NCBI GenBank assembly: GCA_963810935.1
Contig: CAWEPK010000008.1
Coordinates: forward strand, 480,001-544,000
Length of the DNA: 64,000 bases
Origin: an uncultured delta proteobacterium
GTDB taxonomy: Bacteria > Desulfobacterota > Syntrophorhabdia > Syntrophorhabdales > WCHB1-27
Direction of reading: 5' to 3'
Part shown: positions 41,827 through 61,933 of the stretch, one piece after another
Layout: each line of letters begins with the position of its first letter
Numbering within the stretch: the stretch's first letter is position 1
Notes under the pieces: model-generated
What the model was told of the DNA's origin: nothing
What the model saw: the letters and a program-made list of their open reading frames with translations, nothing else
Databases searched by the model: none
Made by a program: the position numbers and the translations under genes

Positions 41827-43047
41827 TCAAAGTCTGCCTGTCCCAAAAAAAGCCGATGCAGCTTCCACCACCGCTTGTGCGAACCTGGCGTCTTCTAAAT
41901 TGGCATCCACCTCGACGATCTCTATTTCCTTCCTTAGCTTCTTTCTTAATGTCTTGCAGAAAACAGCGTCTCCTTCCGGGTCATAGGTCGGGCCGCCCGG
42001 CTTGTCTACCGAGGACCAGCCGCGCATAGGCACGAGCACCCGGACAGGCCCTTTCGACCTATTCAATTTGAGGGCGAACGCCTCCGCGATCCGCCTCAAT
42101 TCCTCAGGGCTTGCGCGCAGCCATACCCGGAGCTTGTCCAGCTCGTATCGCGGCCGTCCGTACAACATGCGGCGGGAGCGGGACGGCGTTACATGGTTCA
42201 CGCTGCACGTCGACACGATTTGGGGGATGCCGCGGGCCCCCGCCGACTCCAGCCTCCCGGGCCCGGCGTCCCGTGCGAAGCCGTAGAGGTTCTCGCCCAC
42301 GCCTCCCGTCGCCAGGTCTATCACGCCCCGGAACATCCCCGACGCAATCATCTCCTCCATGGCGCGGTCGCCGGCGCCGTTGGCATGGAACCCGACGACC
42401 TCGCAGCCCGCCTTCTCCAGGGCGGACCGGACGAAGCTCGCGCACCTTTCACAGGGGCTCATCGTCGTCATGGCTAAGGCATTGCCTGCACCGGCCCAGG
42501 TATCGGCAACGCGCCGGCACGGCATGGCGCGCACGGCGTACGCCGCCCTTTCGAGGACGCTGCGCACGGGGTTGGAAAGACCTGCTATCTCGACTACGGA
42601 GTTGAACAGTATAATATCGCTCGTTTTAGGGAAAAAGCCGGAAAGTCCGCGCATGGCTGCGACGGACGAGACCATAAGCTTCGGGAAGCCGAACGGAAGG
42701 GCCTGCATCACCGCCGCAATCATAGATGTCCCGGTATAGCCGCCTATGCCGGTGATACCTTCGATCTTCCTTTCAGCCATCAGCCTTGATGCGATGCGCG
42801 AAGCTCCGACGATCATCGTCTCCATGTTTGAGGCCATGTTTCCGGAGCCGTTCAACGCTTTAAGGCTGCGTCCGCCGGCCCGCGCCACCTCGCTTGCTGT
42901 GATGTCCGCCTTGAAAACCGGCTTTCCGCAGCGCGTGGACAGGTCCATCGACAGAGACTCCGAGCCGAGGGCCTTCAGTTCCCCGTGCAGGTAGAGCGCT
43001 TCGGCGCCCTTCGTATCCATCGTGGCGAGGAGCAGGACAGACTTCAT
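41827..43047 (-). CDS. Tm-1-like ATP-binding domain protein (UPF0261), copy 1
   Basis: ATMDTKGAE, LPFGFPKLMVS, FHANGAGDRAME, R LESAGARGIPQ and PMRGWSSVD motifs. Confidence 0.9.
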   Translation of the reverse strand: MKSVLLLATMDTKGAEALYLHGELKALGSESLSMDLSTRCGKPVFKADITASEVARAGGRSLKALNGSGNMASNMETMIVGASRIASRLMAERKIEGITGIGGYTGTSMIAAVMQALPFGFPKLMVSSVAAMRGLSGFFPKTSDIILFNSVVEIAGLSNPVRSVLERAAYAVRAMPCRRVADTWAGAGNALAMTTMSPCERCASFVRSALEKAGCEVVGFHANGAGDRAMEEMIASGMFRGVIDLATGGVGENLYGFARDAGPGRLESAGARGIPQIVSTCSVNHVTPSRSRRMLYGRPRYELDKLRVWLRASPEELRRIAEAFALKLNRSKGPVRVLVPMRGWSSVDKPGGPTYDPEGDAVFCKTLRKKLRKEIEIVEVDANLEDARFAQAVVEAASAFFGTGRL

Positions 43048-43668
43048 ATTTGTACGTACTTCCATGAGACGGATGCCTTCCGTATCTTCCCTATGGGGAG
43101 GTCGGCGAAGTGGCCCCTGTCACGTAGATACTCGACGTTCGGCCTCCCGTCATCCGTGAAGGAAGGCAGCATGGCGTCGTCCTCTCCGTTGAACGGGACC
43201 GGGGTCACGCGCACCTTACGGCAGTAAGCGTTGTCGTAAGTGGGGGTCGCCTTGACCCATCGGCCGTCTATGTACAGGTCGGCCAGGCCGTGATACGCGA
43301 ATACGTTGCTCCCTCTCTTCAGAACAAGCTCCGGGGGCGTCAGGTGCGCGCGTATCTCCGCGAACCTGAGCCTCGCGGGTATGCCCGCGCAGCGCGCCAG
43401 AGCGGTCAGCAGGACCGCCTTCTGGACGCAGTAGCCTTCTCCGGCTGCAAGCACGCGGCTTGCCTTGAAGTGGGAATCGGTGGGCCTCTGCGCATAGACG
43501 TTATACCTGATCCCGTCCCTCACGAACAAGAAGAGGCGGACGGCCTTTTCCTTCGCGCTGCTGAGGCCGGTCGTCAGGCTCATCGGTCCTCCGGCAGACG
43601 TCCGGGTGGCCGCAATCGATAAAAAAGGTCGGCCGCAGGTAACGCTCTCTGCCTGTAAGTCTGCTCAA
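43044..43668 (-). pseudogene. Transglutaminase-like domain protein, frameshift near 43585
   Basis: YLRPTFFIDCGHP in one frame joins FVRDGIRY..GYCVQKAVLL..YHG..WVKATP in the next frame on removal of one base. Confidence 0.78.
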
Positions 43669-44033
43669 TCCTCCACCAGCGTAAGGGCGTTCGGGGCGCA
43701 CCACTGCACGCACTGCGGGTTAGGCGGCTCTCCGCAGAAGTCGCACTTGAGCGGGATGCCCGTGTCGGGTTCCTTATAGACCGATTTCGACGGGCACGAG
43801 GCCCGGCAAATGACGCAGCCGTCCACCTCGACGCCCTCCAGCATGCGGACGCCTTCCGAATTACAGGCGGCCTCCGTGTACGGGCCCGCGATGACGGGCA
43901 GGCAGAACTCCTCGCCCACGAATACCCTGATGCGCGACCGCCACGGGTTGACGGCCCCCGTGTGGGCCAGCGAACAGGCGATCTCGCACTGCTTGCAGCC
44001 GGTGCATACCTTATGGTCTATCTTTATCTTCAT
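43665..44033 (-). CDS. 4Fe-4S ferredoxin-like subunit, BamC-like
   Basis: CTGCKQCEIAC, AGPYTEAAC, CVICRASCPS and EPDTGIPLKCDFC..P.CVQWC follow the pattern I recall for BamC. Confidence 0.85.
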   Translation of the reverse strand: MKIKIDHKVCTGCKQCEIACSLAHTGAVNPWRSRIRVFVGEEFCLPVIAGPYTEAACNSEGVRMLEGVEVDGCVICRASCPSKSVYKEPDTGIPLKCDFCGEPPNPQCVQWCAPNALTLVED

Positions 44034-45847
44034 TCCGGGTCCGATCCTTCTTTGTCCAGCCCGATTTTATGGAGCTTCTCTTTGGTGGGCGCGCCTTTTT
44101 CGTCCCATTCCCTCAACCGGTAGTATTCGACGAGCAGCTTATCAAGCTCCACGACCCGGTTCTTCACGCGGGGCTCTTTGAGTATCCTCGGCGGCAGGGA
44201 GTCATCCTCGCCCGTGAGGCCTGCCCTCATATTGAAAAGGCGCTCGAGATTCCAAATCTTCTCTCCTAGCCTGTTGACCCCGTCCTGCGTGTATGCGGTG
44301 CCGGTCACGTACGTCAGCCACTCGGCGAGCTTCTCGCCCCAGAGCGGGCCATGGTAGACGATCCAGCAGAGTATCCCCGAATCGGCGGCCGCTATATAAT
44401 CCTGGTCCTTCTTCGTAAACTCTACAAAGCGGGCGGGGTCTTTCCGTCCCTCGTAGAACGGCATGGTCGATTTCGTGTGCGCGCCTCCCGTATTGGAGGT
44501 GGCGTACTGCAAGCCGAGCGCGTCGAACGCCTGCGGGTGCCAGGCCGGTATGCCCATGCCCTTAACGCCCATGAATAACTCCGGGTGGCCGTATCGCCCG
44601 GCAAAAGCCAGCCCGCCTTCCGCCATGAGGTCGCCGATCCCCTCCCTGTGGGCTATCTGCTTGAGCAGTTGGAACATGTTCGTGCTTCCGAATTCGAGCG
44701 GGTAGCCGAGGTCTTTTTCGGGCAGGTGGCCCTCCTCGAAAAGCTCCATGGCGCAGGAGACCATCGCCCCCGTCGTGATCGTATCCATGCCGAGCTCGTT
44801 GCACAGGTAATTGGCCCTGCAGATGTCCTCCATCTGCCCGAGACCGCAGTTCGCCCCCATAAGGGCCATCGTCTCATGCTCCGGCCCTTTTGCCGTCAAC
44901 GGGTATTCCGGGTCCTTGATGCGGCTCCTTTTCCCGCATGAGAAGGGGCAGGAGAAGCAGGCCTCGTCGCGCACCCGGATCAGGTCCCTGATCACCTCGG
45001 GGTCCTCATACTTCACGAAATCTTCGGAGTATCCCGATTTGAAATTGAACGCCGCCTGGCTCTTGCTTGCGTTCGCCCGGCCGGGCAGCGACCAGGTGCC
45101 GTATCTCCTACGCTTGTAGAATTCGCCGTTCTCGCGGGCTTCCTTGTAAAACTCCATGACCGCCTTCCGGAAGCCCTCCACGTCGGCGATGTTGACCGGT
45201 CCGGTCCCCAGGGCGGCCACCGCTTTGAGGTTCTTCGACCCCATGACCGCCCCCAGGCCCGAGCGTCCGGCGGCCCGCCCGCCGTCCGACATGATGCACG
45301 CGAACCTCACCATGTTCTCGCCGGCCGGGCCTATGTCGGCTACGCCCATGCTGTTGAGCGCCCAGTTATCGAAGCCGTATCTCTTTCTCATGTCTTCCCG
45401 GATCGTCTTTTCCGTATCCGCGGAGAGTTTGCCCCACAGGTGACCGGCCGGCAATATCTCCACCCGCTCGTTATTGATCGTCACGTAAACGGGCTCGGGC
45501 GACCTGCCCTCGAAGATAAGGAGGTCGTAGCCGGAATATTTCAGGTTCGATCCGAAATAGCCGCCGCAGCACGGACTCGACACGCAGTTGCTTAAGGGCG
45601 ACTTGGCGGAGACGATAAAGCGGCTTGCCGCCGGGGCCCCGCTTCCTGTCAGGGGGCCGGTGGAAAAGATAAGCTTGTTCGCCGGGCTTAAGGCGTCGAT
45701 CGCGGGGTCCACCTCATCGAAGAGTATCCTGCCGCACATGCCTCTGCCGCCGATGTAGTCGCTCATCAGGTAGGCCGGCAGCTCTTCTGTGCGGACTGTT
45801 GCCGCGGACAGGTCGATCCTCAGTATCTTCCCGTGCCACCCGAACAT
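44030..45847 (-). CDS. Aldehyde:ferredoxin oxidoreductase family tungsten enzyme
   Basis: GRSGLGAVMGSKNLKAV, CFSCPFSC, GPEHET, LGMDTIT, GGAH and ERLFNMRAG...DDSLP motifs. Confidence 0.93.
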   Translation of the reverse strand: MFGWHGKILRIDLSAATVRTEELPAYLMSDYIGGRGMCGRILFDEVDPAIDALSPANKLIFSTGPLTGSGAPAASRFIVSAKSPLSNCVSSPCCGGYFGSNLKYSGYDLLIFEGRSPEPVYVTINNERVEILPAGHLWGKLSADTEKTIREDMRKRYGFDNWALNSMGVADIGPAGENMVRFACIMSDGGRAAGRSGLGAVMGSKNLKAVAALGTGPVNIADVEGFRKAVMEFYKEARENGEFYKRRRYGTWSLPGRANASKSQAAFNFKSGYSEDFVKYEDPEVIRDLIRVRDEACFSCPFSCGKRSRIKDPEYPLTAKGPEHETMALMGANCGLGQMEDICRANYLCNELGMDTITTGAMVSCAMELFEEGHLPEKDLGYPLEFGSTNMFQLLKQIAHREGIGDLMAEGGLAFAGRYGHPELFMGVKGMGIPAWHPQAFDALGLQYATSNTGGAHTKSTMPFYEGRKDPARFVEFTKKDQDYIAAADSGILCWIVYHGPLWGEKLAEWLTYVTGTAYTQDGVNRLGEKIWNLERLFNMRAGLTGEDDSLPPRILKEPRVKNRVVELDKLLVEYYRLREWDEKGAPTKEKLHKIGLDKEGSDPE

Positions 45848-45848
45848 A

Positions 45849-46286
45849 TCAACCCCCGCCTGGACGGCCTGAATGCGTCTCTGCGTCCCGGAACGGACCG
45901 AGCGCCCTCACCGACTCCGTCATGCCGTTGACGATGCCCGCGAAGCGCAGCCCTTCCGATGCCGACACCCAGTCGAGCCGCACCCTCTCATCCTCTACCC
46001 CGAACTGCTCGAGCACCCTTTTCAGGAGCGCCATCCTGACGGCCGTCTTGTAGTTCCCTTCCAGGTAGTGGCATTCTCCCGGATGGCACCCGAGCACGAG
46101 CACCCCGTCGGCCCCGGCCTGAAGGGCTTCGAGGACAAAGGAAGGCTCGACCCTCCCGCTGCACATTACGCGGACGATCCTGATGTTCGGGGCGTACTGG
46201 GTCCTGGACGTGCCCGCCAGGTCGGCCCCTGCGTAGGAGCACCAGTTACAACTGAAAACGAGTATCTTCGGCTCGAACTGCTTCAC
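45849..46286 (-). CDS. mvhD: MvhD/FlxD-type 2Fe-2S subunit
   Basis: GTG start. FSCNWCSYAGADLAG, VMCSGRV, GCHPGECHY and WVSASEG motifs; Cys rather than Sec. Confidence 0.92.
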   Translation of the reverse strand: MKQFEPKILVFSCNWCSYAGADLAGTSRTQYAPNIRIVRVMCSGRVEPSFVLEALQAGADGVLVLGCHPGECHYLEGNYKTAVRMALLKRVLEQFGVEDERVRLDWVSASEGLRFAGIVNGMTESVRALGPFRDAETHSGRPGGG

Positions 46287-46294
46287 CTGCTGCC

Positions 46295-49200
46295 TCACGC
46301 GTCGAAGGCGGCGTGGATCTCCGCCAGGATCTGTTCCGTGGTGAAATGTTTTCCCTTCATTGCTCCGCCGGGACAGGCGGCCACGCAGACGCCGCACCCC
46401 TTGCAGAGCGCCTGGTTGACGTAGGAAACGCCTTTTTCTTCATCCTTCCGCACGGCGTCGTAGGGACACACCGCCTCGCAAACGCGGCACCCGCTGCAGC
46501 GCGATTCGTCCACCTGCGCCACGGCGGCCTGTCCCTCTATGCTCCCGCGCGTCAATACGGCAAGCGATCTCGATGCGGCGGCCTCGGCCTGGGCGATGCT
46601 CTCGTCGATGAATTTGGGACTGTGAGCGGCGCCGCACATGAAGATGCCGTCCGTCGAGAAATCGACGGGGCGCAGCTTCATGTGGGCCTCAAGGAAAAAG
46701 CCGTCCTCGTTCAGCGGGACCTTGAGCATCTGCGAGAGCGCCCGGTTTGCATCCGGCGCGACGGTGGCCGCGGCCAGGCAGACGAGGCCCGCGTCGAGCT
46801 GTATCTTACGGCCGAGGACAGGCTCGGTCACTGTCACCCTCAGGAAAGACTTCCCCTCCTCTTCCACGGCCGCGATATCAGGAGGGTCCTCCGGCTGGTA
46901 GCGGATAAAGACCACCCCTTCGTCCGAGGCCTTCCTGTAATAATCCTCCTTGAACCCGTACGTCCTCATGTCACGGTAGAGGACGTAGATGTCCATGTCG
47001 GGTCTCAGTCCCTTCAGCTTCAGCGCATCCTTTACGGAGTGCGAGCAGCAGACGCGGCTGCAATAGGGCCTTTCGTCATTTCTCGACCCGACGCACTGGA
47101 TAAAAACGGCCGCTTCGGTCTCCTTCACGCGGCCGGCGTCTTTCTCGATCATCTCATCGAGCTCCAGGAGCGTGACGACCCTCGGGTCCCGGCCGTACAG
47201 GTATTCGCCGGGTCTATGCTCCCCCGCGCCCGATGCCACTATGGTAACGCCGTGCTCTACCTGCCTCGGCGTATCGCTCCCCGCCACGCCGATCTTCGAC
47301 GAGAAGTTGCCCACGTAGCCCGAATGCTCCAGCAGCTCCGCGCCCGTAACGACCTCGATCATCTCCGTTGCGCGGACCTCCGAGACGAGGCGGTCCACCA
47401 GCGCGGCCACGTTGCCCCCCTCCAGCGTCTCGGGTATCCTCGCCGCCAATCCTCCCAGCTCGTCATTCTTTTCGATCAGGTGGACCTTGATGCCCTGGCG
47501 CGCCAGGGCCAGGCCCGCGGTCATACCGGCGACCCCGCCGCCGACAACCAGCGCCGCCTTCGTCACGCCGTATTCCGCCCGGTAAAGAGGCTGGAGTAGC
47601 AGGGCCCTTGCGGCGGCCATCCTGACGAGGTCCTTCGCCTTGCCAGTCGCGACCGCCTTGTCGCCCATATGGACGAAGGAGCAGTGCTCCCGGATATTGG
47701 CGAACTGGAAAAGGAAGGGGTTGAGACCGGCCTCTCTCAACGTGTCCTGAAAGACCGGCTCGTGGGTCCTGGGCGTGCATGCGGCCACTACGACCCTGTT
47801 GAGTCCCTCTTTCTTTATGGCCTCCACGATGTGCCTTACCGAATCGACCGAGCACGCGAAAGTCTCCTCAACGGCGCACGCTACGCCGGGAAGGTCCTTC
47901 GCGTATTCCACGACTTGCGGGACGCTCACGACCTTCGCGATATTTGTCCCGCAGTCGCATACGAATATGCCTATCCGCGGCTGCTCGCCGCCTACCTCGC
48001 GCTCCGCCGGGTAGACCTTTTCCGCGACCATTGTATGCCGCGCCTCGAAAAGGAGCCTGCGAGGCGAGAGACGCGGCCCCGCTCGCCATGGTGACGGTGT
48101 CCGGGATATCCATCGGGGCGTGGAAAACGCCGCAGGAAAAGATCCCCTTTCTCGATGTCTCCATGGGTGAAAAGTCGGGACTGCGGCAGAAGCCGTGGTC
48201 GTTCAGCTCTATTGCCAGGTTGCCGGCCAGGTCGCGGTTGCCTGCAGAAGGCGCCAGGCCTACGGAAAGGACAACGAGGTCGAACTCCTCATCCCTGACC
48301 CCGCTGCCGTTGACGCGGTACCTGAGCACTACGTTGCCGCTTTCGGCCCCCTCCCCCTTGATAGACGCCTTGGCCCATATGTAGCGCACGCCGGCCATCG
48401 CTTTGGCACGTTCGTAGAAGCGCTCGAAACCCTTGCCGTAGGCGCGGACATCGTTATGGAGGATAACGGCCTCCATCTCCGGATGGTGCTCTTTCGACAG
48501 TATGAGCTGCTTCGTGGCGTACATGCAGCATACGGCGGAGCAGTACGTACAACTCGAGCTTTCGTCACGTGAGCCGACGCACTGTATCCAGGCAATCCTG
48601 TGCGGAACACGGCCGTCGGACGGGCGGCGCAGCTCTCCCCCGTTGGGGCCCGATGCGCTGATCATCCGCTCAAACTCCAGGCTGGTTACGACATTCGGGA
48701 GCCGGTGGTACGCGTACCGGCTCTCCGCCGTGGGATCGAACGTATCGTATCCCGGCGCGAGGACCAGGCACCCGACACGTGCGGTCGTCCTTTTGGGCTG
48801 CATCCTGAAGTCTATGGCCTTGCCCTTACACGTCGGCACGCAGATCTGGCATATCTTCCTTTTCAGGAAAAGGCAATTCCCCGCGTCTATAACGGACACT
48901 GCCGGAACGGCCTGCGGGAAATGCACGTGGATGCACTTCTTTCTCGCCAGTTTTTCGTTGTACGTGTCCGGGACGTAGACGGGGCAGTATTCGGCGCAGG
49001 TGCCGCAGCCCGTGCATTTCTCCTCGTCCACGTAACGCGGCTCCTCGACAAGGCGGACCTCGAAATTCCCCGCCTCTCCCTCTACCCCTTCCACGCGGGT
49101 ATTGGTAAGGATCGTGATATTGGGGTTGGTCGCGCACTCGATAAACTTGGGGGAGAGGATGCACATGGAGCAGTCGTTGGTCGGGAAGGTCTTGTCGAGC

Positions 49201-49364
49201 TGTGACATCTTGCCCCCGATGGCGGGGGACTTATCGACAAGGTAGACCCTGAACCCGGAAGCTGCGGCGTCGAGGGCGGCCTGGATGCCGCCGACGCCCG
49301 CGCCCACGACCATCATCGCCCCGACCTTATCGGAGCGCCCGGGACTTTCAGGCACCGGACTCAT
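46295..49364 (-). pseudogene. hdrA: HdrA-like (BamE-like) double-FAD-domain flavoprotein, frameshift near 48056
   Basis: GGKMSQLDKTFPTNDCSMC, two IQCVGSR..YCS.VCC units and ferredoxin motifs. Removing one base at 48056-48057 gives ~1022 aa (..ASQLLFEARHTMVAEK..). Confidence 0.88.
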
Positions 49365-51794: not shown

Positions 51795-51831
51795 GCGCTT
51801 CCCTCTTCGTCTTGCGGGTATCGTCCGGTCT

Positions 51832-52496
51832 CTATAACCCCGGCCCCGAGTCAGCCCCTTGATCAGATAGGGCATCTCGACCCTCCTGGTAGGGGCGAGT
51901 ATCCTGCTCTGATAGTCCGTCACGTATTTCGATTTGAGGGTCCGGGTAAGGCCCCGGTACTCGTCGGTGGCAGCCACTTTCGCGATAGCCTCTATCGTCT
52001 GGCTCGTCCCTTCCACGAGGATGAACGGACCGGAGCCTATCGCCACCTTCCACACGTTCGTCACCCTTATCCCCAACTTTTCCATCCTGGGGACGAACTC
52101 GTTGTCCAGAAAGGTCCTGTAGCCCTTTTCCATGCCCGGGAGGATATTGAAATACTGGTTGAATTTCCAGACGCCGACCTGTACCTCGTATCGCTTGGCG
52201 TCGGCTGTCCCGTACGAGCTGTACAGCCTGCTCGCATAATTCCTGATAAGGGGTGAAAGCCCTTCCATAAGCTCGCTATACCCTTTTGACGTTACCGCCT
52301 TCTGGACCACGCCGGGGTCGTTCGTCGTCGATACGGCGACAATGCGGGGACCGGCGCCGACCACGACGTAGAATGCTCCGATTATCCGCAGCCCCGTTTT
52401 TTCCATGGTCGGTATGTATTTGCCAAGGATGAAGTCTTCGTATTCCTTCTCCTTGTTCTCGACCACGTCCCAGTACGTTGCAAAAAGTATAGCCAT
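51832..52496 (-). CDS. Tandem dimeric alpha-beta barrel (NIPSNAP-like) hypothetical protein; 3' end uncertain
   Basis: Two internal repeats (Y..F....(Y/F).P.MEK.G.R....(Y/W).V..G.GP). As sequenced it reads through in frame into Tm-1 copy 2. Confidence 0.6.
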
Positions 52497-53580: not shown

Positions 53581-53602
53581 GGCCCCTCTCCGCGTTGCGC
53601 CT

Positions 53603-55288
53603 TTATTTGTTGAGGATGAAGACCGTCCCCATGTTAGCGTCCACCCGCACCTTCATGCCGTCTTTAAGGAGCTTCGTGCCCTCGAACACGTTCATCACGA
53701 CCGGGATGCCGTATTCCCTGCCGACGATGGCCGCGTGTGAGAGACTGGCGCCGCGGTCGACGACCACGCCGCCCAGGAGCGAGAAGACCGGCGTCCAGCT
53801 CGGCGACGTGGTCGGCGCCACAAGGATGTCGCCCTTTTCTATCTTCGACAGCTCGCTCTCGCTCCAGATAACCTTAACCGTGCCTTCGTAAACCCCGGGG
53901 GCCCCGCAGACGCCGTACAGGTCGGCCTTCAGCTCCGGCCGTGCAACCGGCATCGTGCCGACGACCACTTTAAGGGCAATCGGGTCGAGGGATTCGACGA
54001 GTCCCTTCATCGCCTCTTCAATCGAGAAGCCCTCCTTCATGATCATGGGTACATTGCCGCGCTCGCACCAACCCTGCCAGTCTGCCTTCCTGCGGTCCAC
54101 GATGTTCCGCAGGTTGAACATGGCCGGGTTGATCCCCGCCCTCCTTACCTCATCGGGGATGAGGAAGAAGATGTCTTCCGCACTGTCGATTGCCTTCTCC
54201 TTTGCGAACCGTTTCCCGACGCCCAGCGCGCTGCGTCTAAGGATTGCATGGGTATAGAGGTCGAGGTAATGGTTATGCTCCTCGCTGAACCACGCGCTGT
54301 TCTGGGCAAGGGTGAGGATCATCTTGAACCAGCTACGCTGCTCGGGCGCAACCTTTTCGAGCACCTCTTTTTCCATGGCCAGCCTTTCGGCCTCGTGCGC
54401 TTTCCTTTCCTCGTCCAGGTTGTAGTCGATCCCTTTATCGAGGCCCATCTTGATTACGTTGAAGGCGGGCGTGGGGTCCTCCAGCCAGGTCGGCACGTTG
54501 ATCTCCGCCATCCTCTCCATCCTCCACCCGGCTTCATTCTCCATGAAATAGTCGAACGACTTGAGGAACGCCGGCCCGTTCGGGGCGCCTTCGAGCGCGC
54601 TCCTCATTTTAGTCGCAGGGTTGGCAGTGAAGATATCCTTGAGCGCCAGCGACTCCGCCTGTTTGGCAAGATCGAAGAGCCCTTTGTCCACCTGGAAGCT
54701 TTTGTTATCGAAACCGCTCGTCAGCTTGTGGAACTGCGGGCTGGTATCGTCGAAGCCAAGGAGCTGCCGCGTCATCTGCTCAAACAGGACGAAGGCGGTG
54801 TAGACGCCGTACATCATGTACATATGGATTTCCCACATCCGCCGGCAGGTATCGATGGCCTGCTCGAAGTTGTCGAGGATCTCGATGTTCGTGGCCTTGT
54901 CCATATCGAGCGCCTTGACCTTATCGTACCGGCCGACCATCTCATTAACGAAACCGCGCCACATACCCTGGAAATCCTCGATGAACGGCCTGATGGCGGT
55001 CCTGAACCGCTCCTCCCTTTCGGCCCTCTCCTTCGGGTCCTTCACGATCAGCAACGCCAGGTAACCTGCCCCGTCCTTGAACCGCCAGTCCCATCCCTTC
55101 ACTGTCGGCAGCGAAAGCTTCTCCGCCCCGTACTGCATCCCGTGCCTGCAGAAGTTGACCCAGAACCAGCCGAACATCGGCGTCCAAGGCGGCACTGAGT
55201 GCGTCGCATCCTGGAACCAGCACGGTGATATGTCGAAATCCGTAGCTTCGTCGAACTCGAGACCCGGAACACAATCGTACATCTTCAT
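53603..55288 (-). CDS. PEP-utilizing phospho-His swivel protein, phenylphosphate synthase alpha (PpsA)-like
   Basis: N-terminal WFQDATH, C-terminal ILVAPTTSPSW and SHAAIVGREYGIP (catalytic His). Confidence 0.85.
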   Translation of the reverse strand: MKMYDCVPGLEFDEATDFDISPCWFQDATHSVPPWTPMFGWFWVNFCRHGMQYGAEKLSLPTVKGWDWRFKDGAGYLALLIVKDPKERAEREERFRTAIRPFIEDFQGMWRGFVNEMVGRYDKVKALDMDKATNIEILDNFEQAIDTCRRMWEIHMYMMYGVYTAFVLFEQMTRQLLGFDDTSPQFHKLTSGFDNKSFQVDKGLFDLAKQAESLALKDIFTANPATKMRSALEGAPNGPAFLKSFDYFMENEAGWRMERMAEINVPTWLEDPTPAFNVIKMGLDKGIDYNLDEERKAHEAERLAMEKEVLEKVAPEQRSWFKMILTLAQNSAWFSEEHNHYLDLYTHAILRRSALGVGKRFAKEKAIDSAEDIFFLIPDEVRRAGINPAMFNLRNIVDRRKADWQGWCERGNVPMIMKEGFSIEEAMKGLVESLDPIALKVVVGTMPVARPELKADLYGVCGAPGVYEGTVKVIWSESELSKIEKGDILVAPTTSPSWTPVFSLLGGVVVDRGASLSHAAIVGREYGIPVVMNVFEGTKLLKDGMKVRVDANMGTVFILNK

Positions 55289-55328
55289 AATTGCCCCCCC
55301 TGTTTAGGTTTTACCCCCTTAACCACCC

Positions 55329-56081
55329 CTAGTGCATTGCCCTACCGCCATTGACCAGTATGGTCTGGCCCGTTATAAAGTCCGCTGCATCCGACGACAG
55401 GAATACCGTGACCCCCACGATATCCTCCGGCATACCGACTCGTCTGAGAGGGGTTTTTGAGACGTCGTACTTCGTCACGTCGGCGATGGTCCTGCTGGCC
55501 TCGGTGTCCGTGAAACCGGGGGCCACCGCGTTGACGGTGACGTTGTCCGGCCCCAGCTCGGCGGCGAGCGCCCGCGTCAGGCCCAGGACGCCGCCTTTCG
55601 ACGCTACATAGTGAACGAAGCCGTTCGAGCCCGTGAAACATGTTTCCGACGATATGTTTACGATCTTGCCTTTTCCCTGCGCCTTCATATAGGGGTAGAC
55701 GGCCTTCGTGCAGAGCCACGGCCCCTTGACGTTGATGGCCATCATACGGTCCCATTCCTCGACCGTTATCGCCGTGAAGGCCTTGCGCTCGACCCCGAAG
55801 TAATAACCGGCGTTATTGACGAGCACGTCGATCCTGCCGAACTTCTCCACGGTCGCCTGGGCCATACCCTTCAGGCCCTCCGCGTCGGTTACGTCGGCCC
55901 GGAACCAGATGCACTCGCTGCCTTTCGCCGATATCTCTTCCGCCGTCTTTCTGACACCCTCCACGTCTATGTCGCTGAGTGCCAGCCTCGCTCCCTCTTC
56001 GGCGAAGGCCATCGCGAACGCCCTGCCCAGGCCCTTCGCTCCGCCCGTGATAACAGCAACCTTTCCCTCCAAGAGTTTCAT
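55329..56081 (-). CDS. Short-chain dehydrogenase/reductase
   Basis: TGGAKGLG, NNAG, YVASK and VNAVAPG motifs. Confidence 0.93.
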   Translation of the reverse strand: MKLLEGKVAVITGGAKGLGRAFAMAFAEEGARLALSDIDVEGVRKTAEEISAKGSECIWFRADVTDAEGLKGMAQATVEKFGRIDVLVNNAGYYFGVERKAFTAITVEEWDRMMAINVKGPWLCTKAVYPYMKAQGKGKIVNISSETCFTGSNGFVHYVASKGGVLGLTRALAAELGPDNVTVNAVAPGFTDTEASRTIADVTKYDVSKTPLRRVGMPEDIVGVTVFLSSDAADFITGQTILVNGGRAMH

Positions 56082-56118
56082 GGCTCCCGCTCCTTATCCT
56101 GAACAACGGGCCGGGGAA

Positions 56119-56982
56119 TCAGGCGACCTTCACCAGAAAATCCCCCCGGTCCAAGCCTGTCTGCCTGGCCAGGGGACGGCACTTGATTTTCAGCATGTAA
56201 ATCGCCTTCTTCCCCTGCGCCTCGCCCATCAGCGATTCATAGCTCCCGGTACCCTTGACGACGAGCAGGTCGCTCTCCAGGAAAGCCTGCTGCGCCCTCG
56301 TCTCTCCCTGTCCGGGCACGAAGACCTTGTCCGTCGTAACTACCTCGTCGACCGTATCTTCGAGGCCGAAGAAAGCGGCATCCTCGACGGTGGCGTCCTC
56401 GAAAAAGACGGGCTCCTTCACCACGAGCGTCACTCTCACGCCCATCTCCTTCATCATCCCGATGAGGAGCGAGTCGAAACCGATCTCGCCGGCGTTGTCC
56501 GTCACGTAAAAAACGCTTTGCGCCTCCCGGACCGCCTCGTACGGGTCTCCCACGACAACCGGGGGTGCGAGTCTCTCCTCGATGATGCCCGCCGCATCCG
56601 CGAAGGTGAAAGTCTCCGAGGGCCGGCCGATGGGCGCAATGTTGGCGGCCGCCGCGAGAAAACAGGCCCTTTCGAGCCTCTCCTTTGTCGTTTCTCCGTT
56701 CTTTATATACGCGCCTGCCGCATCGAGTAACTCCATCGCGCGGGCATCGGCGCCCTTCTTGAACTCATTCCAGAAATCGGGTGCCGGAGTCACGAATTCG
56801 TAGACAAGGGCAACTGCCCGGTTGCACAGACAGGCGAGGTTCGACGTGTCCGTTATCTCCTCCGAGACGAAGTCGATGACCTTCCGGAACAACCGGGGAC
56901 TGTCCCGGTCCCCGCTCCCAGCGGCGGCCCTTCCGTAAACCCAGCCAAGCAGGCAAACGCCGCATTCAAGCTCGGGCTTCAT
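56119..56982 (-). CDS. DUF89/ARMT1-like metal-dependent phosphatase
   Basis: N-terminal CxxC, DNAGEIGFD, EDAT and KGTGSYESL motifs. Confidence 0.8.
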   Translation of the reverse strand: MKPELECGVCLLGWVYGRAAAGSGDRDSPRLFRKVIDFVSEEITDTSNLACLCNRAVALVYEFVTPAPDFWNEFKKGADARAMELLDAAGAYIKNGETTKERLERACFLAAAANIAPIGRPSETFTFADAAGIIEERLAPPVVVGDPYEAVREAQSVFYVTDNAGEIGFDSLLIGMMKEMGVRVTLVVKEPVFFEDATVEDAAFFGLEDTVDEVVTTDKVFVPGQGETRAQQAFLESDLLVVKGTGSYESLMGEAQGKKAIYMLKIKCRPLARQTGLDRGDFLVKVA

Positions 56983-57007
56983 ATGCCTCCCGCTTTCCTG
57001 AAGTTCA

Positions 57008-58693
57008 TTACCAGCCGCGCTCTTCCCAGGGCCTGTACTTCAGGTCGAAATCCTTCGCGATGAGCTTGTAGCAATTGTAGCTGCTGCCCCGCCCTATGCC
57101 GTGCGCCGGGTGGCACGCCATGCCGGCCATGTAGTAGTTCCTGATAGGCATGCGCTGCCCCGAAAGCTCCGGCATCGGCCTGTTTCTCCCGGAACATTCG
57201 TAATGCGCGTCGAGACCGCCCCACCCGCCCTGCGGCATGCACGGGTTCCTGTTAACCACGTCGTCGGGGGTGGCTATCCAGCCGCCGATAAAGTTCTCTT
57301 TGGTCACGTTTGGGGCGTACTTGCCCCATTCGGCGACCATCCTGACCTCTATCTCCCTCTTCATCCTCAGCCAATCGCGCTCGCTGAAGTTCCTCCAGGG
57401 ACACGTAAATTCTTCAACGAGGGCCGCGAACCTGCCTTCAGGCGCGCGCGTCCTGTCCCACTGGACGTCCGGGGCGACGAGAAGGTAGAGCTTGTCGGCT
57501 ATGCCCTTGGCCCAGCGCTCCTGCTGGTAACGGCCGCTCAGGAAATATTCGGGGTCCGCCTCGCCGAAATAGAGCCTCGGGACGAGCCCCAGCTCCGGGT
57601 TCTGCGGGTATTTGGGCGGCTCCATCAGGGCAATGTTGCCCCAGAAAAGTTGTGTCCTTTCATAGCCCTTGTCGTCGTAAAGCGATTCCGGTCTTTCCTT
57701 CAGCCTCTGCCCCTTTGCCCAGACGTCGGCGGGCCAGTTGTCCCTGCCCGCAACGTCCATCGTCAGCTCGGTATTCAGGTCGCTCACGACCAGGTCGGCC
57801 AGGATCTTATTCCCGTCGGCCAACTCGACCCCGTAGGCCTTGTTGTTATCGACAAGCACCCTCTTCACTTCATTAAGGACGAAGAACTCGCCGCCATATT
57901 GCTGGAAGGCCCTGAGCAACGCATGGGTGATGCTATGGGTGCCGCCCGTCACTATGGCGGCCGCGTCCATCGACAGGATCAGGCCCAGCGCATGGATGTG
58001 CCAGTAAGGGCCCGGCCTGTCCTGCGGGAAGAAGCCCGTGGACGTCTGGATCGCCCTCATATAGAACGTCTGCATCTCCGGGCTTTTGAATAACGTCGTA
58101 GCGATATGGCCGACCGTCCCGAACGCGATATCCGGGTCGAGTCCGTCTTTCGGGTCGTCGGCAAGGGCCTCCAGCGGGTCGGGACCGTCCGGCCATTCGG
58201 CCGGCCCGGTGAAGCGGTACTTGTGCCAGGCCGACCGCCACCTGGTCTTGTACCTCCTGATTATCTCCTCGACGGTGTTGGCGTCGTCCTTGTTGATCTT
58301 GGCCACTTCCTTGATTGTGTAATCGGCGGCCGCCTCGGAGAATTCCGCCCTGCCGCTTATGGGGTCGACAACCGGGAAGATGGTCTTGCCGAGGATATAG
58401 TTGCCGTCCGGATATATCCATGCCTCGTTGTTCTCCGGGAAGAGGTAAACGAGGCCGTAGTCTCTCAAGTTGAAGTCCTGGTATGCCGGGTTCGTGTAGA
58501 ACCGCGTGAAGTGGGCGCACACATTCTGGATGAAGCCGGGCAGCGGAAGCTCCTCACCGCATGCGCCGCCGCCCATCTCGTGCCACCGCTCGAACATGGC
58601 CGTCTTGAGCCCCGCCCTCTGAAGGTAGCAGGCGATGATCGTAGCGTGGTGGCCGCCCCCGACTATGACGGCATCGTATTTCTTATCTGGCAT
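57008..58693 (-). CDS. FAD-dependent oxidoreductase, phytoene-desaturase/PYROXD2-like (copy B)
   Basis: IVGGGHHA (variant Rossmann motif), ERWHEMGGGA, GGTHSITHAL, YAPN, TPDD and ACHPAHG. Confidence 0.85.
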   Translation of the reverse strand: MPDKKYDAVIVGGGHHATIIACYLQRAGLKTAMFERWHEMGGGACGEELPLPGFIQNVCAHFTRFYTNPAYQDFNLRDYGLVYLFPENNEAWIYPDGNYILGKTIFPVVDPISGRAEFSEAAADYTIKEVAKINKDDANTVEEIIRRYKTRWRSAWHKYRFTGPAEWPDGPDPLEALADDPKDGLDPDIAFGTVGHIATTLFKSPEMQTFYMRAIQTSTGFFPQDRPGPYWHIHALGLILSMDAAAIVTGGTHSITHALLRAFQQYGGEFFVLNEVKRVLVDNNKAYGVELADGNKILADLVVSDLNTELTMDVAGRDNWPADVWAKGQRLKERPESLYDDKGYERTQLFWGNIALMEPPKYPQNPELGLVPRLYFGEADPEYFLSGRYQQERWAKGIADKLYLLVAPDVQWDRTRAPEGRFAALVEEFTCPWRNFSERDWLRMKREIEVRMVAEWGKYAPNVTKENFIGGWIATPDDVVNRNPCMPQGGWGGLDAHYECSGRNRPMPELSGQRMPIRNYYMAGMACHPAHGIGRGSSYNCYKLIAKDFDLKYRPWEERGW

Positions 58694-58724
58694 ATCGAAC
58701 CTCCTTGGGATCGTTCTTCATTCA

Positions 58725-59135
58725 TCACCTGCTCGGGATAGGCCGCGGGCCCTGGCTCGGTATGGGCTGCGGTCCCGCTTTCGCGGCCGAGGGGGCCGTC
58801 ACAGGAGGGGCCTGGGGTTGCAGGCCGCCCGCGGAAGCCTCTTCAAGCGGCGGGTAGACCGGAGATTTTGAAAAAAGGAACTTTATTCCACGCATGATCA
58901 GGACCGGGTTTTTAAGGACCGTCCAGACCATATGCCTGAGGTCGCCTGGATCCACGAAGGCCCTGACCGTCCAATGGACGGGGTGTTGGATCTCCATGAC
59001 CATCAGCATGCGCATCGGCTCGGCCGCACCGTTTGCGGGCGGCTCCAGCGTCGAAGGCACCATCCCGGTAGTCTCAATCGCGGCTATCCGTCCGCGAAGC
59101 AGCGTCCTGCCCAACCCTGTAGATCGTATGAACAT
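58725..59135 (-). CDS. Small hypothetical protein between the two flavoproteins
   Basis: AGGAGG RBS, MFIRSTGLGRTLL start, Pro/Ala-rich tail, short gaps on both sides. Confidence 0.75.
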   Translation of the reverse strand: MFIRSTGLGRTLLRGRIAAIETTGMVPSTLEPPANGAAEPMRMLMVMEIQHPVHWTVRAFVDPGDLRHMVWTVLKNPVLIMRGIKFLFSKSPVYPPLEEASAGGLQPQAPPVTAPSAAKAGPQPIPSQGPRPIPSR

Positions 59136-59153
59136 CCCGCCCTCCTGACAGTT

Positions 59154-60794
59154 TCAGAATAGTCCCAGGTCCCTGGCTTCTTTCACGCCCCTCGGCTCGG
59201 GCCACCACTTCTCTATGCCCAGGTCGTCCGCTATCCTTTCTGCCGCGTTGAAGCCGGGGCCGTACGTAATCATGCCGCCCGAGTGCGTGCATGCGCCCGC
59301 GAGATACAGCTTCCTGATCGGCGAATCGTGCTGGCTGCAATATTCGTTGGGCCTGAAGTAGCCCATCTGCAGCGGGAGATAGGCGCCCTGCTTGAAGCAG
59401 CCGTTCTTCATGTCCGGGAACTTGTTTTCCGTGTCGAGGGGCGTCCCGATGTAGTCCCACAATATGCTGTCGGAATTCATGTTCGGCGCGTATCTTTCGA
59501 GCATCTTCTTGCATTGCTCCGCGTAAGGCCGTCTCATTTTGTTCCACGCGAGAGCGCCGCCGTCCTTCAGCCTGTACGGCGCGCATTCCATGCTGATGAG
59601 GCCGACGTGCTTCACGACGCTTTCGGGCCGGCGGTGGACCCGGATGGGGTCGTGGATCGAAGGGAAGCAGCAGTTGAACCCGCCGTCGTGCAGCTCGCCC
59701 CGCTTCGACGCCTCGAAGTGGTCGATCAGGTCCTGCTCGCTTTCGTACCCGATCACGTAAATGAGGGATTCGGCCAGCTCGGGGTCGTTCTCTATGGCCT
59801 TGAACCGCGGCGCTTCGGTCAGGGCGAGATGGCACGTGAAGAAGCTCATCTCCGAGTATCGCCACTGGTCGAGCCTGGTGATAAGCTCCTGCTCCAGGTG
59901 TTGTTTGCCCACGTAATCATAGAACGTCTGGTGCGGGTTGAGTGCGCTGCAGACGAACTTGTTCGCCCTGATGACGGTGCCGTCGTCCAGCTCAACCCCC
60001 TTCGCCTCCCCGTTCTCGATGATGATCCTCTTTATGACGCAGCCGCTAATCACCCTGCTGCCGTTTTCCGATATATATTTTCCGAGGAGATGGGCCACGT
60101 GGTGAGACCCCATATGGCACAGGCGGAAGTGCCAGCCGCGGTTCATCATCAGGGGCACGAGGTATCCGAGGCCCTCCAGGTCGTAGTCAAGTCCCCACAT
60201 AGTGGCAAGATAAAGGAAGAGCGCGCGGACCCTGTCGTTCTCGAACCAGGCGTCGATGATCTGCCGGGGGGTGTATCCGGTCAGCTCGTCGTCCCATTTC
60301 GTCGCCGGGTGCCTTTCAAGCTTTGCGGCCTGCTCCAGACTCGGCAGCGGGTTCACATAGCTCGCCGGGGCAAGGAAGACATCCATCGCGTCGTCCGACC
60401 ATTTTACGAAGTTCCTGAAAGATTCCGCGTCGTTCGCGGAGAACTTGGCGATCGACTTCGCGGACCTCTCCGTGTCCCTGTAGAGGGCGAGATGGGTCCC
60501 GTCCTGAAAGGGCATCACCACCTGGACGTTGGGATAGATCCATTGCAGGTCGTACTTTGTCTCAAGCTCGAAGTCCCGCATCGGAGGGGCATATTCGACC
60601 ATCATGTGGTAGATCGCGTGGCTGTCCACGAGCATACCGGGAAGGAGCAGGTTCTCCGTCGCCAGGCCTCCCCCGATCTCGTACCGTCGCTCCAGGACCG
60701 CCACCTTCAGTCCCGCCTTGGCGAGATAGCCGGCGGTAGTCAGCCCGTTCGGACCCGCACCGATCACGATACCGTCAAACTCCAGTTCCCTCAT
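59154..60794 (-). CDS. FAD-dependent oxidoreductase, phytoene-desaturase/PYROXD2-like (copy A)
   Basis: IGAGPNGL, LERRYEIGGG, YAPNM, TPLD and LYLAGACTHSGG motifs. Confidence 0.88.
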   Translation of the reverse strand: MRELEFDGIVIGAGPNGLTTAGYLAKAGLKVAVLERRYEIGGGLATENLLLPGMLVDSHAIYHMMVEYAPPMRDFELETKYDLQWIYPNVQVVMPFQDGTHLALYRDTERSAKSIAKFSANDAESFRNFVKWSDDAMDVFLAPASYVNPLPSLEQAAKLERHPATKWDDELTGYTPRQIIDAWFENDRVRALFLYLATMWGLDYDLEGLGYLVPLMMNRGWHFRLCHMGSHHVAHLLGKYISENGSRVISGCVIKRIIIENGEAKGVELDDGTVIRANKFVCSALNPHQTFYDYVGKQHLEQELITRLDQWRYSEMSFFTCHLALTEAPRFKAIENDPELAESLIYVIGYESEQDLIDHFEASKRGELHDGGFNCCFPSIHDPIRVHRRPESVVKHVGLISMECAPYRLKDGGALAWNKMRRPYAEQCKKMLERYAPNMNSDSILWDYIGTPLDTENKFPDMKNGCFKQGAYLPLQMGYFRPNEYCSQHDSPIRKLYLAGACTHSGGMITYGPGFNAAERIADDLGIEKWWPEPRGVKEARDLGLF

Positions 60795-60935
60795 GTCGCC
60801 TCCTTCCCCCTTGTAATGCTTCGGCTAAAAAGACGTAACCAGTGAAAACTTCGCAAATGAATTAAATTATGTCGGGTTGGATGTTGACATATCAATACAA
60901 TTTAATTTATACTCGTGTTAGAATCGTTATGTTTT

Positions 60936-60954
60936 CTGTAAAGTTTCTTTACAG
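60936..60954. promoter_or_regulatory. LysR-type binding site (T-N11-A dyad)
   Basis: Perfect inverted repeat CTGTAAAG-TTT-CTTTACAG containing T(60939)-N11-A(60951), in the divergent promoter region. Confidence 0.7.
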
Positions 60955-60979
60955 CATTCGAGGTGGATAAGATTCTCGA

Positions 60980-61933
60980 ATGAACATAAATCTGAACCAA
61001 CTCAAGGCTTTTTACCTCGTTGCAAAGAACGGAACCTTCTCCAAAGCTGCCGATGAATTGTTCGTTACCGAGCCTGCGGTTTTCGTCCAGGTGCGCACGC
61101 TTGAGCGGTGCCTCGGGCTGAAGCTCCTCGATAAATTCGGAAAGGACCTGCGGCTTACGGAGATCGGGAGGCTGCTTTACGGGTACGCCGGCAGGATTTT
61201 CAGCATAGTCGATGAGGCCGAAACGGCGATAAAGGACATCGGGGCGCTCAATAAGGGGGAGCTGAGGGTTGGGACCACAAGCACCCTTGCCGAATATCTG
61301 CTGCCCCTCATACTCCCCGCTTTCAGCGCAAGCCACACGAAGGTCCAGGTGTACCTCGAAGAGACGAACTCCGGCCAACTGGTGAAAGGCGTCCTTGCGC
61401 ACCAGTATGAAATGGCTATCGTGGCAAGGGTAGCCTACCCCGACACTATCGAATACACGACGCTGAGCAGAGATGAAATCCTTCTCGTCGCCTCGCCGGA
61501 CGACAGCCTCGCACAGAAGCAGCGGTGCTCGCTCAAGGAGCTGAACGGTTACCCGATGATATGCCGCGACGTGAAATCTGCGACGAGGCAAGCGGTATGG
61601 AAAGAGTTCGTGAAGAGAGACATCAAGCCCTCCGCTGTCATAGAGGCAGCCAATACGGAGTTGATCAAGAGGCTCGTGGCGAGCGGCAGGGGCGTCTCTC
61701 TCCTTTCGGAGGTATGCGTCAAGAAAGAGATAGAGCGCGGCGAGCTGGCCGCCATACCCATTGCTGAAGGGCCTTTCTTCCTCGATATCGACGCGATCTA
61801 TCTGAGGGGCAGGACGTTATCGCCCGCGGCGGCTTCCTTCCTCAGCTTTCTCCTTAAAACAGGCACATCGGAAAACCTGAACCACTTCGTGGGGGTTATG
61901 AAGGGTAGGAAACCCCTGGTCGCTTTATCCTGA
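60980..61933 (+). CDS. LysR family transcriptional regulator
   Basis: N-terminal HTH (FSKAADELFVTEPAV..LE..LG.KL) plus substrate-binding domain; divergent from the operon. Confidence 0.95.
   Translation: MNINLNQLKAFYLVAKNGTFSKAADELFVTEPAVFVQVRTLERCLGLKLLDKFGKDLRLTEIGRLLYGYAGRIFSIVDEAETAIKDIGALNKGELRVGTTSTLAEYLLPLILPAFSASHTKVQVYLEETNSGQLVKGVLAHQYEMAIVARVAYPDTIEYTTLSRDEILLVASPDDSLAQKQRCSLKELNGYPMICRDVKSATRQAVWKEFVKRDIKPSAVIEAANTELIKRLVASGRGVSLLSEVCVKKEIERGELAAIPIAEGPFFLDIDAIYLRGRTLSPAAASFLSFLLKTGTSENLNHFVGVMKGRKPLVALS

Follow-up and report, generated by a model that had tools for sequence, protein, structure and literature searches.

A candidate aryl-phosphate route for the anaerobic oxidation of methylphenols encoded by an operon from Syntrophorhabdales

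A stretch of 64,000 nucleotides from an uncultured delta proteobacterium of the Syntrophorhabdales (the window; GenBank assembly GCA_963810935.1, contig CAWEPK010000008.1, positions 480,001 to 544,000) carries an operon of 16 genes, among them a pair of flavoproteins, a two-component dikinase, two kinases of a second type, and an aldehyde oxidoreductase beside Bam-like subunits. The cluster is real and conserved in strict anaerobes. It rather probably serves to oxidize the methyl group of a methylphenol, p-cresol being the most likely one, to a carboxylate via an aryl phosphate, with no need for O2, CoA, or a glycyl radical. The window lies on contig C8 of a genome of 4.06 Mb (21 contigs, 93% complete), and its proteins were assigned by profile searches with Pfam and NCBIfam, comparisons with the Protein Data Bank (PDB), and predicted structure models.

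From gene identities, motifs, conservation, exchanges of enzymes between related clusters, and genome context, all of which are observations, we infer the reactions, their substrate and order, and the bifurcation of electrons. A flavoenzyme of the CtmAB family would take a hydride from the methyl group and add water, yielding hydroxybenzyl alcohol (step 1); the electrons would leave via flavoprotein A and a small protein or, in other species, via EtfAB. A short-chain dehydrogenase/reductase (SDR) would convert the alcohol to the aldehyde (step 2), the dikinase (ATP to AMP) and MarK-like kinases (ATP to ADP) would phosphorylate the ring hydroxyl (step 3), and a tungsten aldehyde oxidoreductase (W-AOR), or elsewhere a molybdenum one (Mo-AOR), would form the acid (step 4). 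A DUF89 or HD hydrolase would then remove the phosphate, and hydroxybenzoate would enter the benzoyl-CoA route encoded elsewhere (step 5). The pathway would be controlled by a LysR-type regulator.

Phosphorylation after hydroxylation, at the aryl-carbonyl stage, is slightly preferred over phosphorylation as the first step, which is the order in the Cre pathway, where the dikinase CreHI is essential for oxidation of the 4-cresol methyl group. Three arguments lead to this preference: hydride abstraction of the type carried out by p-cresol methylhydroxylase (PCMH) needs a free para-hydroxyl (PMC13416013), the closest kinases belong to clusters with a ketone carboxylase, and an aldehyde whose phenolate is masked should, on chemical grounds, be a better substrate for the aldehyde oxidoreductase. 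If phosphorylation came first, no quinone methide would be needed, and m- and o-cresol could also be oxidized.

Conservation of the cluster, exchanged enzymes, and protein families

Relatives were collected with the kinase A subunit in one genome per species. Of the 149 places confirmed, the best 80 were analyzed, 39 of which are full-length (at least 20 kb); these counts include related genomes and contigs cut off at their ends and are not independent events. The loci belong mostly to Desulfobacterota, a few to Chloroflexota and Actinomycetota, and the named genomes closest to the window in their kinase (87% identity) are from Syntrophorhabdales. Most frequent among the 80 loci were the genes for the ATP-grasp subunit PpsB (72), the SDR (69), a NIPSNAP-like protein (NIP, 65), and flavoprotein B (56), followed by the small open reading frame (ORF) between the flavoprotein genes (35), flavoprotein A (34), an ABM protein with no counterpart in the window (33), DUF89 (30), UPF0261 (27), electron-transfer flavoprotein (ETF, 22), HD hydrolase (20), and HdrA (13). 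A PaaK-like ligase occurred in 11, another ligase in five, phenylphosphate carboxylase (Ppc) in two, and biotin carboxylase in none. Among the full-length loci, PpsB was present in all 39, flavoprotein B and the SDR in 37 each, a phosphatase in 32, and an aldehyde oxidoreductase in 31; in four of the remaining eight, an aldehyde oxidoreductase gene lies directly past the flank. An earlier note on this DNA, made from the letters alone, had tied its proposal to the gene set being conserved together: the core does recur, but the exact set of 16 is not kept, loci L001 and L007 coming closest.

In an even sample of the phylum, the main kinase clade (at least 59% identity) was found in 22 of 401 genomes (∼5%). 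A BamB-type gene was present in 21 of these 22, compared with 117 of the 401 overall, an association in favor of the methylphenol reading that is, however, confounded and inflated by kinship (seven families, several of them rich in BamB). Searches of plasmids returned distant matches only, below ∼31% identity among the matches listed.

Three positions in the cluster are filled by alternative proteins that are unrelated to one another. W-AOR (39 loci) and Mo-AOR (18 loci; 17 without the distant L015) never occurred together in the 80 loci, which indicates that the position serves aldehyde oxidation. The Mo enzyme (∼885 aa) has the molybdopterin aldehyde oxidoreductase model as its best match in NCBIfam (838 of 1100 bits). 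DUF89 alone was found in 29 loci, the HD hydrolase alone in 19, and both in one; this near-exclusivity suggests that a phosphate is removed. Flavoprotein A alone was found in 33 loci, EtfAB alone in 21, and both in one. Because flavoprotein B occurs in clusters of either type, B is probably catalytic, whereas A with the small ORF, or EtfAB, would take the electrons.

Flavoproteins A (546 aa) and B (561 aa) are 24% identical to each other, and their best NCBIfam match, CrtO-like, lies below the cut-off. A covalent-flavin motif, G-F-L/R-X-N/S-T/L-H-A, is known from limonene dehydrogenase CtmAB and from sterol delta24-desaturase (delta24-SD; PMC11061730), and CtmAB hydroxylates a methyl group with water (PMC11061730, PMC4109377). 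When the motif was scored in 129 flavoprotein sequences of at least 500 aa from the related loci, the flavin position held His in 62 of 64 A-type and Cys in 59 of 65 B-type sequences, and many A orthologues matched the published motif exactly. The pattern of CtmAB and delta24-SD, in which both subunits carry the covalent-flavin His, is therefore not shared by this pair, B having Cys. B is probably the catalytic subunit, a putative methyl hydroxylase, and A probably the electron-exit subunit. PDB searches gave no close flavoprotein structure and no entry named CtmA, CtmB, or delta24-SD; matches of the small protein in the Atlas were hypothetical proteins only, and a complex prediction of this protein with flavoprotein A (score 0.01) counts neither way. 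Both flavoproteins and both dikinase subunits are encoded by single-copy genes in the genome. More distant flavoprotein pairs are encoded in many settings that lack kinases; taken together, the family thus acts on other substrates too. At L200-L201 (G342:C2:851-891 kb), for instance, three such pairs each lie beside UbiD-type carboxylases, with an aldehyde oxidoreductase and no Pps kinase in view; this is a different pathway of the same flavoprotein family. The benzene flavoprotein of BzS1 (abundant) was dismissed as a counterpart because it is of the VAO/PCMH type and unrelated to the operon flavoproteins.

The dikinase has the split architecture of PpsAB, CreHI, and HpeHI, with an ATP-grasp subunit and a subunit with an RPH-like part and a swivel His, and the phospho-His motif is kept in all 78 main-clade kinases. 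Its A subunit is 32-45% identical to kinases in biotin-carboxylase clusters. The NIP gene is also found beside the phenol pps genes of Syntrophorhabdus aromaticivorans UI. The Tm-1-like proteins are, judged by their domains and motifs, related to MarK, which represents a second type of phenol kinase: UPF0261 corresponds to MarK, which makes ADP and possibly prefers hydroxy-aryl aldehydes and ketones (PMC12624787). Both UPF0261 domains are present, and D14-T15-K16 of MarK reads D-T-K in copy b, D-T-R in copy a, and N-T-K in a third copy, c, outside the operon. Of the phenol pocket, with positions transferred by pairwise alignment, H219 is kept in all three copies (33 of 43 overall), and G195 and H304 in c only. 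The suggestion of the earlier note that the route is independent of CoA and phosphorylates a phenolic hydroxyl gains from the conserved cluster and from this kinship with MarK. The view that the kinase is a dehydratase of the 25-hydroxysteroid-kinase kind was dropped because that activity makes mainly ADP.

The tungsten enzyme is, by its sequence scores, an aldehyde oxidoreductase and not BamB; its cluster cysteines and its Glu and His motifs align with 1AOR. The genome has its true bamBCDEFGH cluster on contig C12, where BamB scores 1115 bits. The module around W-AOR had been called Bam-like, and its BamC-, D-, E-, and F-like proteins are indeed homologous to the genome's own Bam subunits at 45-52% identity (ferredoxin to BamC, 47%). 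The Bam-type reductive chemistry at very low potential that had been invoked with it is not supported: the W enzyme is AOR-type, Mo-AOR replaces it in 17-18 of 80 loci, and Hdr is present in 13 only. All 13 carry this AOR clade, inside the flank in nine and just beyond it in four, and several relatives have Flx genes between MvhD and AOR. In this genome, W-AOR is probably wired to the BamCDEF-like subunits, which would couple low-potential electrons from the aldehyde to the uphill hydroxylation or to NAD+/ferredoxin. Hydroxylation of the methyl group is a high-potential step (∼+80 mV), and oxidation of the aldehyde one of very low potential; this difference would explain a coupling module, be it ETF or Hdr.

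Substrate and competing explanations

The earlier note held that the substrate cannot be read from the sequence. It can be narrowed further than that, rather probably to a methylphenol. S. aromaticivorans UI degrades p-cresol, phenol, 4-hydroxybenzoate, isophthalate, and benzoate (PMC3916484). Its version of the cluster (L075; NZ_KI867150.1, about 2,591-2,611 kb), which contains the only flavoprotein pair of the operon type in this genome, lies 6-18 kb from the genes for phenylphosphate carboxylase and synthase. No glycyl-radical enzyme was detected in the three-scaffold UI genome, although controls were; no PCMH-type flavoprotein was found (the four PF01565 matches are three GlcD-like proteins and one of MurB size), and no type-II DMSO-family hydroxylase scored above the cut-off. 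In the phenol cluster of UI (L133-L134), ppsAB-ppc is flanked by two UPF0261/MarK-like genes and a NIP barrel gene. Locus L136 has a lone PpsA-like gene beside a UPF0261 gene, without PpsB.

Sister clusters were found among 48 wider regions around the relatives in other genomes. L139 (G004:C11), L205 (G262:C14), and L243 (G262:C4) combine one or more related flavoproteins with a Pps-like kinase, a UPF0261 kinase, a biotin carboxylase pair, a CoA ligase, and a thiolase; L139 and L205 have an SDR, and none of the three has an AOR within the stretch examined. This is the layout expected of a PCMH-independent anaerobic ethylphenol route via hydroxyacetophenone, for which these loci are candidates. 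L137, L240, L246, and L247, from the Syntrophorhabdales order, contain genes for LysR, carboxyltransferase, biotin carboxylase, UPF0261, PpsB, a PpsA-like protein, a ligase, an HMG-synthase-like protein, and a thiolase, with no flavoprotein inside the biotin-carboxylase gene block; they are candidates for an anaerobic hydroxyacetophenone pathway resembling Hpe/Acv. The Hpe/Xcc layout is known to serve hydroxyacetophenone and ethylphenol (PMC9618137). By analogy, the natural reading would be an ethyl branch via a ketone and carboxylation, and a methyl branch via an aldehyde and AOR. Tentatively, and with clearly less confidence than in the oxidation of a methylphenol itself, the family of Cys-flavin B subunits may be benzylic hydroxylases of a third anaerobic alkylphenol route, whose methyl branch would lead to an aldehyde oxidoreductase and whose ethyl branch to a biotin carboxylase, both via aryl phosphates; in the operon described here, a confurcating complex of W-AOR and BamCDEF-like subunits would use electrons from the phosphorylated aldehyde to pull the hydroxylation of the methyl group.

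Several points weigh against the oxidation of a methylphenol as set out here. The enzyme roles are read from sequence, and no expression data were found; ATP spent on a tag that is later hydrolyzed is costly for a syntroph. Characterized members of the CtmAB family act on allylic carbons (limonene, sterols), not on benzylic ones (PMC11061730). The link to CtmAB and delta24-SD consists of family and motif; both window flavoproteins deviate from the flavin consensus (G-M-L-V-D-S-H-A in A, Cys in B), and the fold of B also includes amine oxidases. The kinase A subunit is only 24-26% identical to phenol-type PpsA. PpsA, CreH, and HpeH share ∼45% identity and the motif T/S-x-x-G-G-x-x-x-H with Met, parts of which are missing in the window kinase (V-D-R-G-A-S-L-S-H). 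The stacking His of MarK is absent from copies a and b, and the phenol-binding His, which plant Tm-1 has as well, is thus not specific. The ligase found in 11 of 80 loci is PaaK-like rather than of the benzoate-ligase type, and HcrA did not reach the curated cut-off in any of five genomes (best 691 of 995 bits). Because the UI cluster uses Mo-AOR and lacks the Hdr module, this module is optional.

The same chemistry might begin with another phenolic compound, derived from lignin or amino acids, such as methylguaiacol, vanillyl or hydroxybenzyl alcohol, vanillin, or a phenolic amine (tyramine, hydroxybenzylamine) deaminated to the aldehyde by a flavoenzyme whose fold, as noted, is shared with amine oxidases. 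MarK and HpeHI accept vanillin and hydroxybenzaldehyde, clusters contain several kinases, and the PaaK-like ligase would also be compatible. This alternative is unlikely, if still the most serious one: UI needs a route for p-cresol and no other candidate was seen in its genome, the presence of the SDR in 69 of 80 loci suggests that an alcohol is formed on the way, and the sister clusters fit alkyl side chains.

Considerably less probable is an aromatic amine or hydroxy-heteroaromatic compound as phosphate acceptor (a phosphoramidate of toluidine or aminobenzaldehyde, methylpyridinol, or a pyridoxine-like compound). The divergence of the kinase has a parallel in D. anilini, whose aniline kinase subunit shares no more than 27-28% identity with PpsA (PMC7500099), a Pps-like pair is needed for hydroxylation of 3-hydroxypyridine, and the SDR has a match below the cut-off to pyridoxal 4-dehydrogenase (223 of 325 bits). 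However, MarK-like phenol kinases are present in 27 of 80 loci, the cluster adjoins phenol genes in UI, and no gene for a deaminase or for cleavage of an N-ring was seen among the recurring ORF clusters. The ani cluster of D. anilini was rejected as a counterpart, since the available text mentions no flavoprotein pair, SDR, or aldehyde enzyme for it (PMC7500099).

A reductive role is equally improbable, whether the W enzyme with Hdr bifurcation reduced the aryl phosphate (dehydroxylation or dearomatization) or the pathway ran in reverse, disposing of electrons by turning the aldehyde into cresol. The identity of the BamC/D/E/F-like proteins to true Bam subunits and the presence of this AOR clade in every Hdr-bearing locus would fit, and the AOR and flavin reactions could in principle run either way. 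The AOR-type W enzyme, the location of BamB elsewhere, the substitution by Mo-AOR, and the 67 of 80 loci with no Hdr gene in the examined stretch speak against such a role. Oxidation of an allylic methyl group of a terpenoid or steroid, as by CtmAB-GeoAB, with the kinases acting on the alcohol, has in its favor that the only characterized flavoproteins of the family act on limonene and sterols, but is very improbable, because the precedents for both kinase types are phenol kinases, dehydration of 25-hydroxysterols yields mostly ADP unlike a dikinase, the holders are almost all BamB genomes (21 of 22), and no beta-oxidation genes recur.

Cresols are common in manure, sludge, peat, and wastewater from coal and oil. 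For p-cresol, the cluster is a concrete candidate route in a cultured strain, UI, in which both known anaerobic entry enzymes went undetected. If oxidation of a methylphenol proves true, a benzylic reaction would be added to the CtmAB flavin family, MarK-like kinases would have a physiological role in anaerobes, and a new Hdr-linked aldehyde oxidoreductase would be at hand.

Layout of the operon and its surroundings

The 16 genes lie on the minus strand in the order previously described, between positions 60794 and 41827, and neighboring genes are spaced by -4 to +40 bp (Table 1). Nearly all family labels of the earlier note were borne out by Pfam and NCBIfam: two COG1233/CrtO-like flavoproteins, ARMT1/DUF89, SDR, PEP-utilizer mobile domain, PPDK_N, two UPF0261 proteins, CCG/Fer4, HdrA, FlpD/MvhD, AFOR, ferredoxin, and transglutaminase core. 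The label NIPSNAP-like is valid at the level of the fold, the model being a tandem dimeric alpha+beta barrel, but not as a Pfam match. As claimed, no gene for a CoA ligase, BamB, or phenylphosphate carboxylase is present in the operon, yet a CoA ligase occurs in 16 of 80 related loci and the genome encodes Bam on contig C12. The divergent LysR gene and the T-N11-A dyad were likewise found as described. In 17 of 23 relatives, a LysR-type dyad lies 36-37 bp from a conserved 12-bp palindrome, which is a candidate for a shared divergent promoter; in the window, the distance is 57 bp. No TAT signals were seen in the operon proteins.

Table 1. Features of the operon region in window coordinates, in the direction of operon transcription after the upstream elements.
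Feature	Position	Strand	Basis
Third UPF0261/MarK-like gene (copy c), outside the 16-gene set, convergent on LysR; frameshift near 62708	61953..63102	-	LysR pairing also in L006, L009, L012
LysR-type regulator, divergent from operon	60980..61933	+	Pfam LysR_substrate and HTH_1; divergent LysR before flavoprotein A in 23 related loci
T-N11-A dyad, candidate LysR site	60938..60952		Perfect 6-3-6 inverted repeat; in 2.3% of mononucleotide-shuffled spacers
12-bp palindrome, resembling back-to-back -35 hexamers on both strands	60884..60895		At most 2 mismatches in 21/24 LysR-flavoprotein spacers
Flavoprotein A, CtmAB/delta24-SD (COG1233) family, His59 at covalent-flavin position	59154..60794	-	Pfam/NCBIfam, motif alignment
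Small protein (136 aa), S-T-G-L-G motif	58725..59135	-	In 34/34 loci with flavoprotein A; no Pfam/NCBIfam family
Flavoprotein B, COG1233 family, Cys59 at flavin position	57008..58693	-	56/80 loci, 37/39 full-length; CrtI/amine-oxidase fold (model)
DUF89/ARMT1 phosphatase, putative aryl-phosphate hydrolase	56119..56982	-	Pfam, swap with HD hydrolase
Classical SDR, putatively alcohol to aldehyde	55329..56081	-	Y-x-x-x-K at 158; 69/80 loci
Dikinase substrate-binding and swivel subunit, PpsA/CreH/HpeH architecture, separate clade, His518	53603..55288	-	Profile and alignment
Dikinase ATP-grasp subunit, PpsB/CreI/HpeI-like	52537..53580	-	PPDK_N; PEP synthase structures; 72/80 loci
Tandem dimeric alpha+beta barrel protein (NIPSNAP/ABM fold), Pps-kinase accessory; end approximate (stop lost)	51830..52496	-	Model; 65/80 loci
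UPF0261/MarK-like kinase a (Tm-1a), D-T-R, phenol-binding His kept; frameshift near 50993	50527..51794	-	Pfam, alignment
BamD/HdrD-like CCG iron-sulfur protein	49361..50530	-	48% identity to genome's BamD
BamE/HdrA-like double-flavin protein, ~1020 aa; frameshift near 48056	46295..49364	-	Two FAD motifs; 49-52% identity to genome's BamE
MvhD/BamF-like protein	45849..46286	-	Pfam FlpD; 45% identity to genome's BamF
Tungsten aldehyde oxidoreductase, AOR clade	44030..45847	-	9MQX 467, 1AOR 453 vs BamB 4Z3W 202 bits
BamC/AOR-beta-like ferredoxin	43665..44033	-	Pfam; all 15 loci with it also carry this AOR clade
Transglutaminase-like accessory gene; start approximate, frameshift near 43577	43044..43665	-	Pfam; 3/80 loci
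UPF0261/MarK-like kinase b (Tm-1b), D-T-K, phenol-binding His kept	41827..43047	-	Best PDB match MarK 9MPY, 185 bits

Apart from the four frameshifts listed (transglutaminase, HdrA, Tm-1a, and the third Tm-1 gene), the assembly has lost the NIP stop at 51827-51849, which creates a false NIP-Tm-1 fusion. Near-identical short-read contigs (DNA runs X1-X3 of one study) differ from the window by indels at the frame breaks, 43577 being covered by X1 and X2 only. The five breaks are thus assembly errors and the genes are intact in nature; decay into pseudogenes, considered because none of 22 control genes elsewhere is split, is ruled out by these differences. The RNA run X7 contains only short pieces of the region at low depth, several of them with many differences.

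Elsewhere in the window, 27372-32613 (minus strand) encodes a molybdenum enzyme of the xanthine-dehydrogenase family, its large subunit split in the assembly, and a UbiD decarboxylase. Positions 33025-38447 hold a gene for an aromatic-acid MFS transporter (minus strand), followed on the plus strand by genes for a 971-aa fused Fe-S/Mo hydroxylase and a periplasmic binding protein. A 673-aa protein with a signal-like N-terminus and no Pfam/NCBIfam match is encoded at 38852-40873 (plus strand) and has a 56% paralogue on contig C18. A formate-dehydrogenase-like gene at 1610-4342 (plus strand) has one in-frame TGA, which probably encodes selenocysteine, and 8420-26468 (plus strand), judged from translations only, is an exopolysaccharide/O-antigen biosynthesis cluster.

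Comparison with known systems

The earlier note knew of no described pathway with this combination of genes. The cluster belongs neither to Cre nor to Bam or the phenol pathway, but the same logic is known from the aerobic Cre pathway. No published description of the cluster was found in searches of the open literature; it is apparently undescribed and would be the third anaerobic route for cresol.

With CtmAB and delta24-SD, the flavoproteins share the organization as a heterodimer of two COG1233 proteins, little identity between the partners (24% in the operon, 26-27% in the known enzymes), and the N-terminal position of the covalent flavin (PMC4109377, PMC11061730). Unlike in these enzymes, B has Cys in place of His, is encoded without A in clusters of the ETF type, and would act on a benzylic carbon. 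PCMH, of the VAO/PCMH family, would have the same substrate and the same first product (PMC13416013), and hydroxybenzylsuccinate synthase the same substrate, but both belong to unrelated protein families and neither was found in the UI genome. Class II benzoyl-CoA reductase, BamBCDEF(GHI) with Hdr-Flx, has homologous C, D, E, and F subunits beside a tungsten enzyme; here, the W subunit is AOR and the true Bam cluster lies elsewhere (C12). Phenylphosphate synthase and carboxylase (PpsAB, Ppc) share the split ATP-grasp and swivel-His arrangement, and NIP and UPF0261 also flank the phenol cluster of UI. They differ in the low identity of the A subunit and in Ppc, which is absent from the operon and present in only 2 of 80 flanks.

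In the Hpe, Acv, and MarK systems and in the p-ethylphenol cluster of EbN1, the phenolic hydroxyl is phosphorylated by a dikinase or UPF0261 protein, the side chain is processed, and the phosphate is removed (PMC9618137, PMC12167813, PMC12624787), an order of events much like the one proposed here. Their gene layout is shared by the sister clusters L137, L139, L205, L240, L243, L246, and L247, whereas in the 80 loci an aldehyde oxidoreductase takes the place of the biotin carboxylase. The methyl hydroxylase of the Cre pathway is a cytochrome P450; no cytochrome P450 was found by Pfam among the 16 operon genes. By family assignment and the exchanges between loci, kinase, alcohol/aldehyde dehydrogenase, and phosphatase functions of the Cre type would be united in one cluster here. 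Cre of Corynebacterium glutamicum (CreHI, CreJEF, CreG, CreC, CreD) also resembles the operon in its two-component dikinase, in the passage from methyl group via alcohol to aldehyde, in its phosphatase, and in dispensing with a CoA step (PMC12167813, PMC9618137, PMC8796525, and the AcvAB preprint). In contrast to Cre, the operon has a flavoenzyme that would work without O2, a W/Mo aldehyde oxidoreductase, a DUF89/HD phosphatase, a dikinase of a separate clade, additional MarK-like kinases, and an Hdr or ETF electron module.

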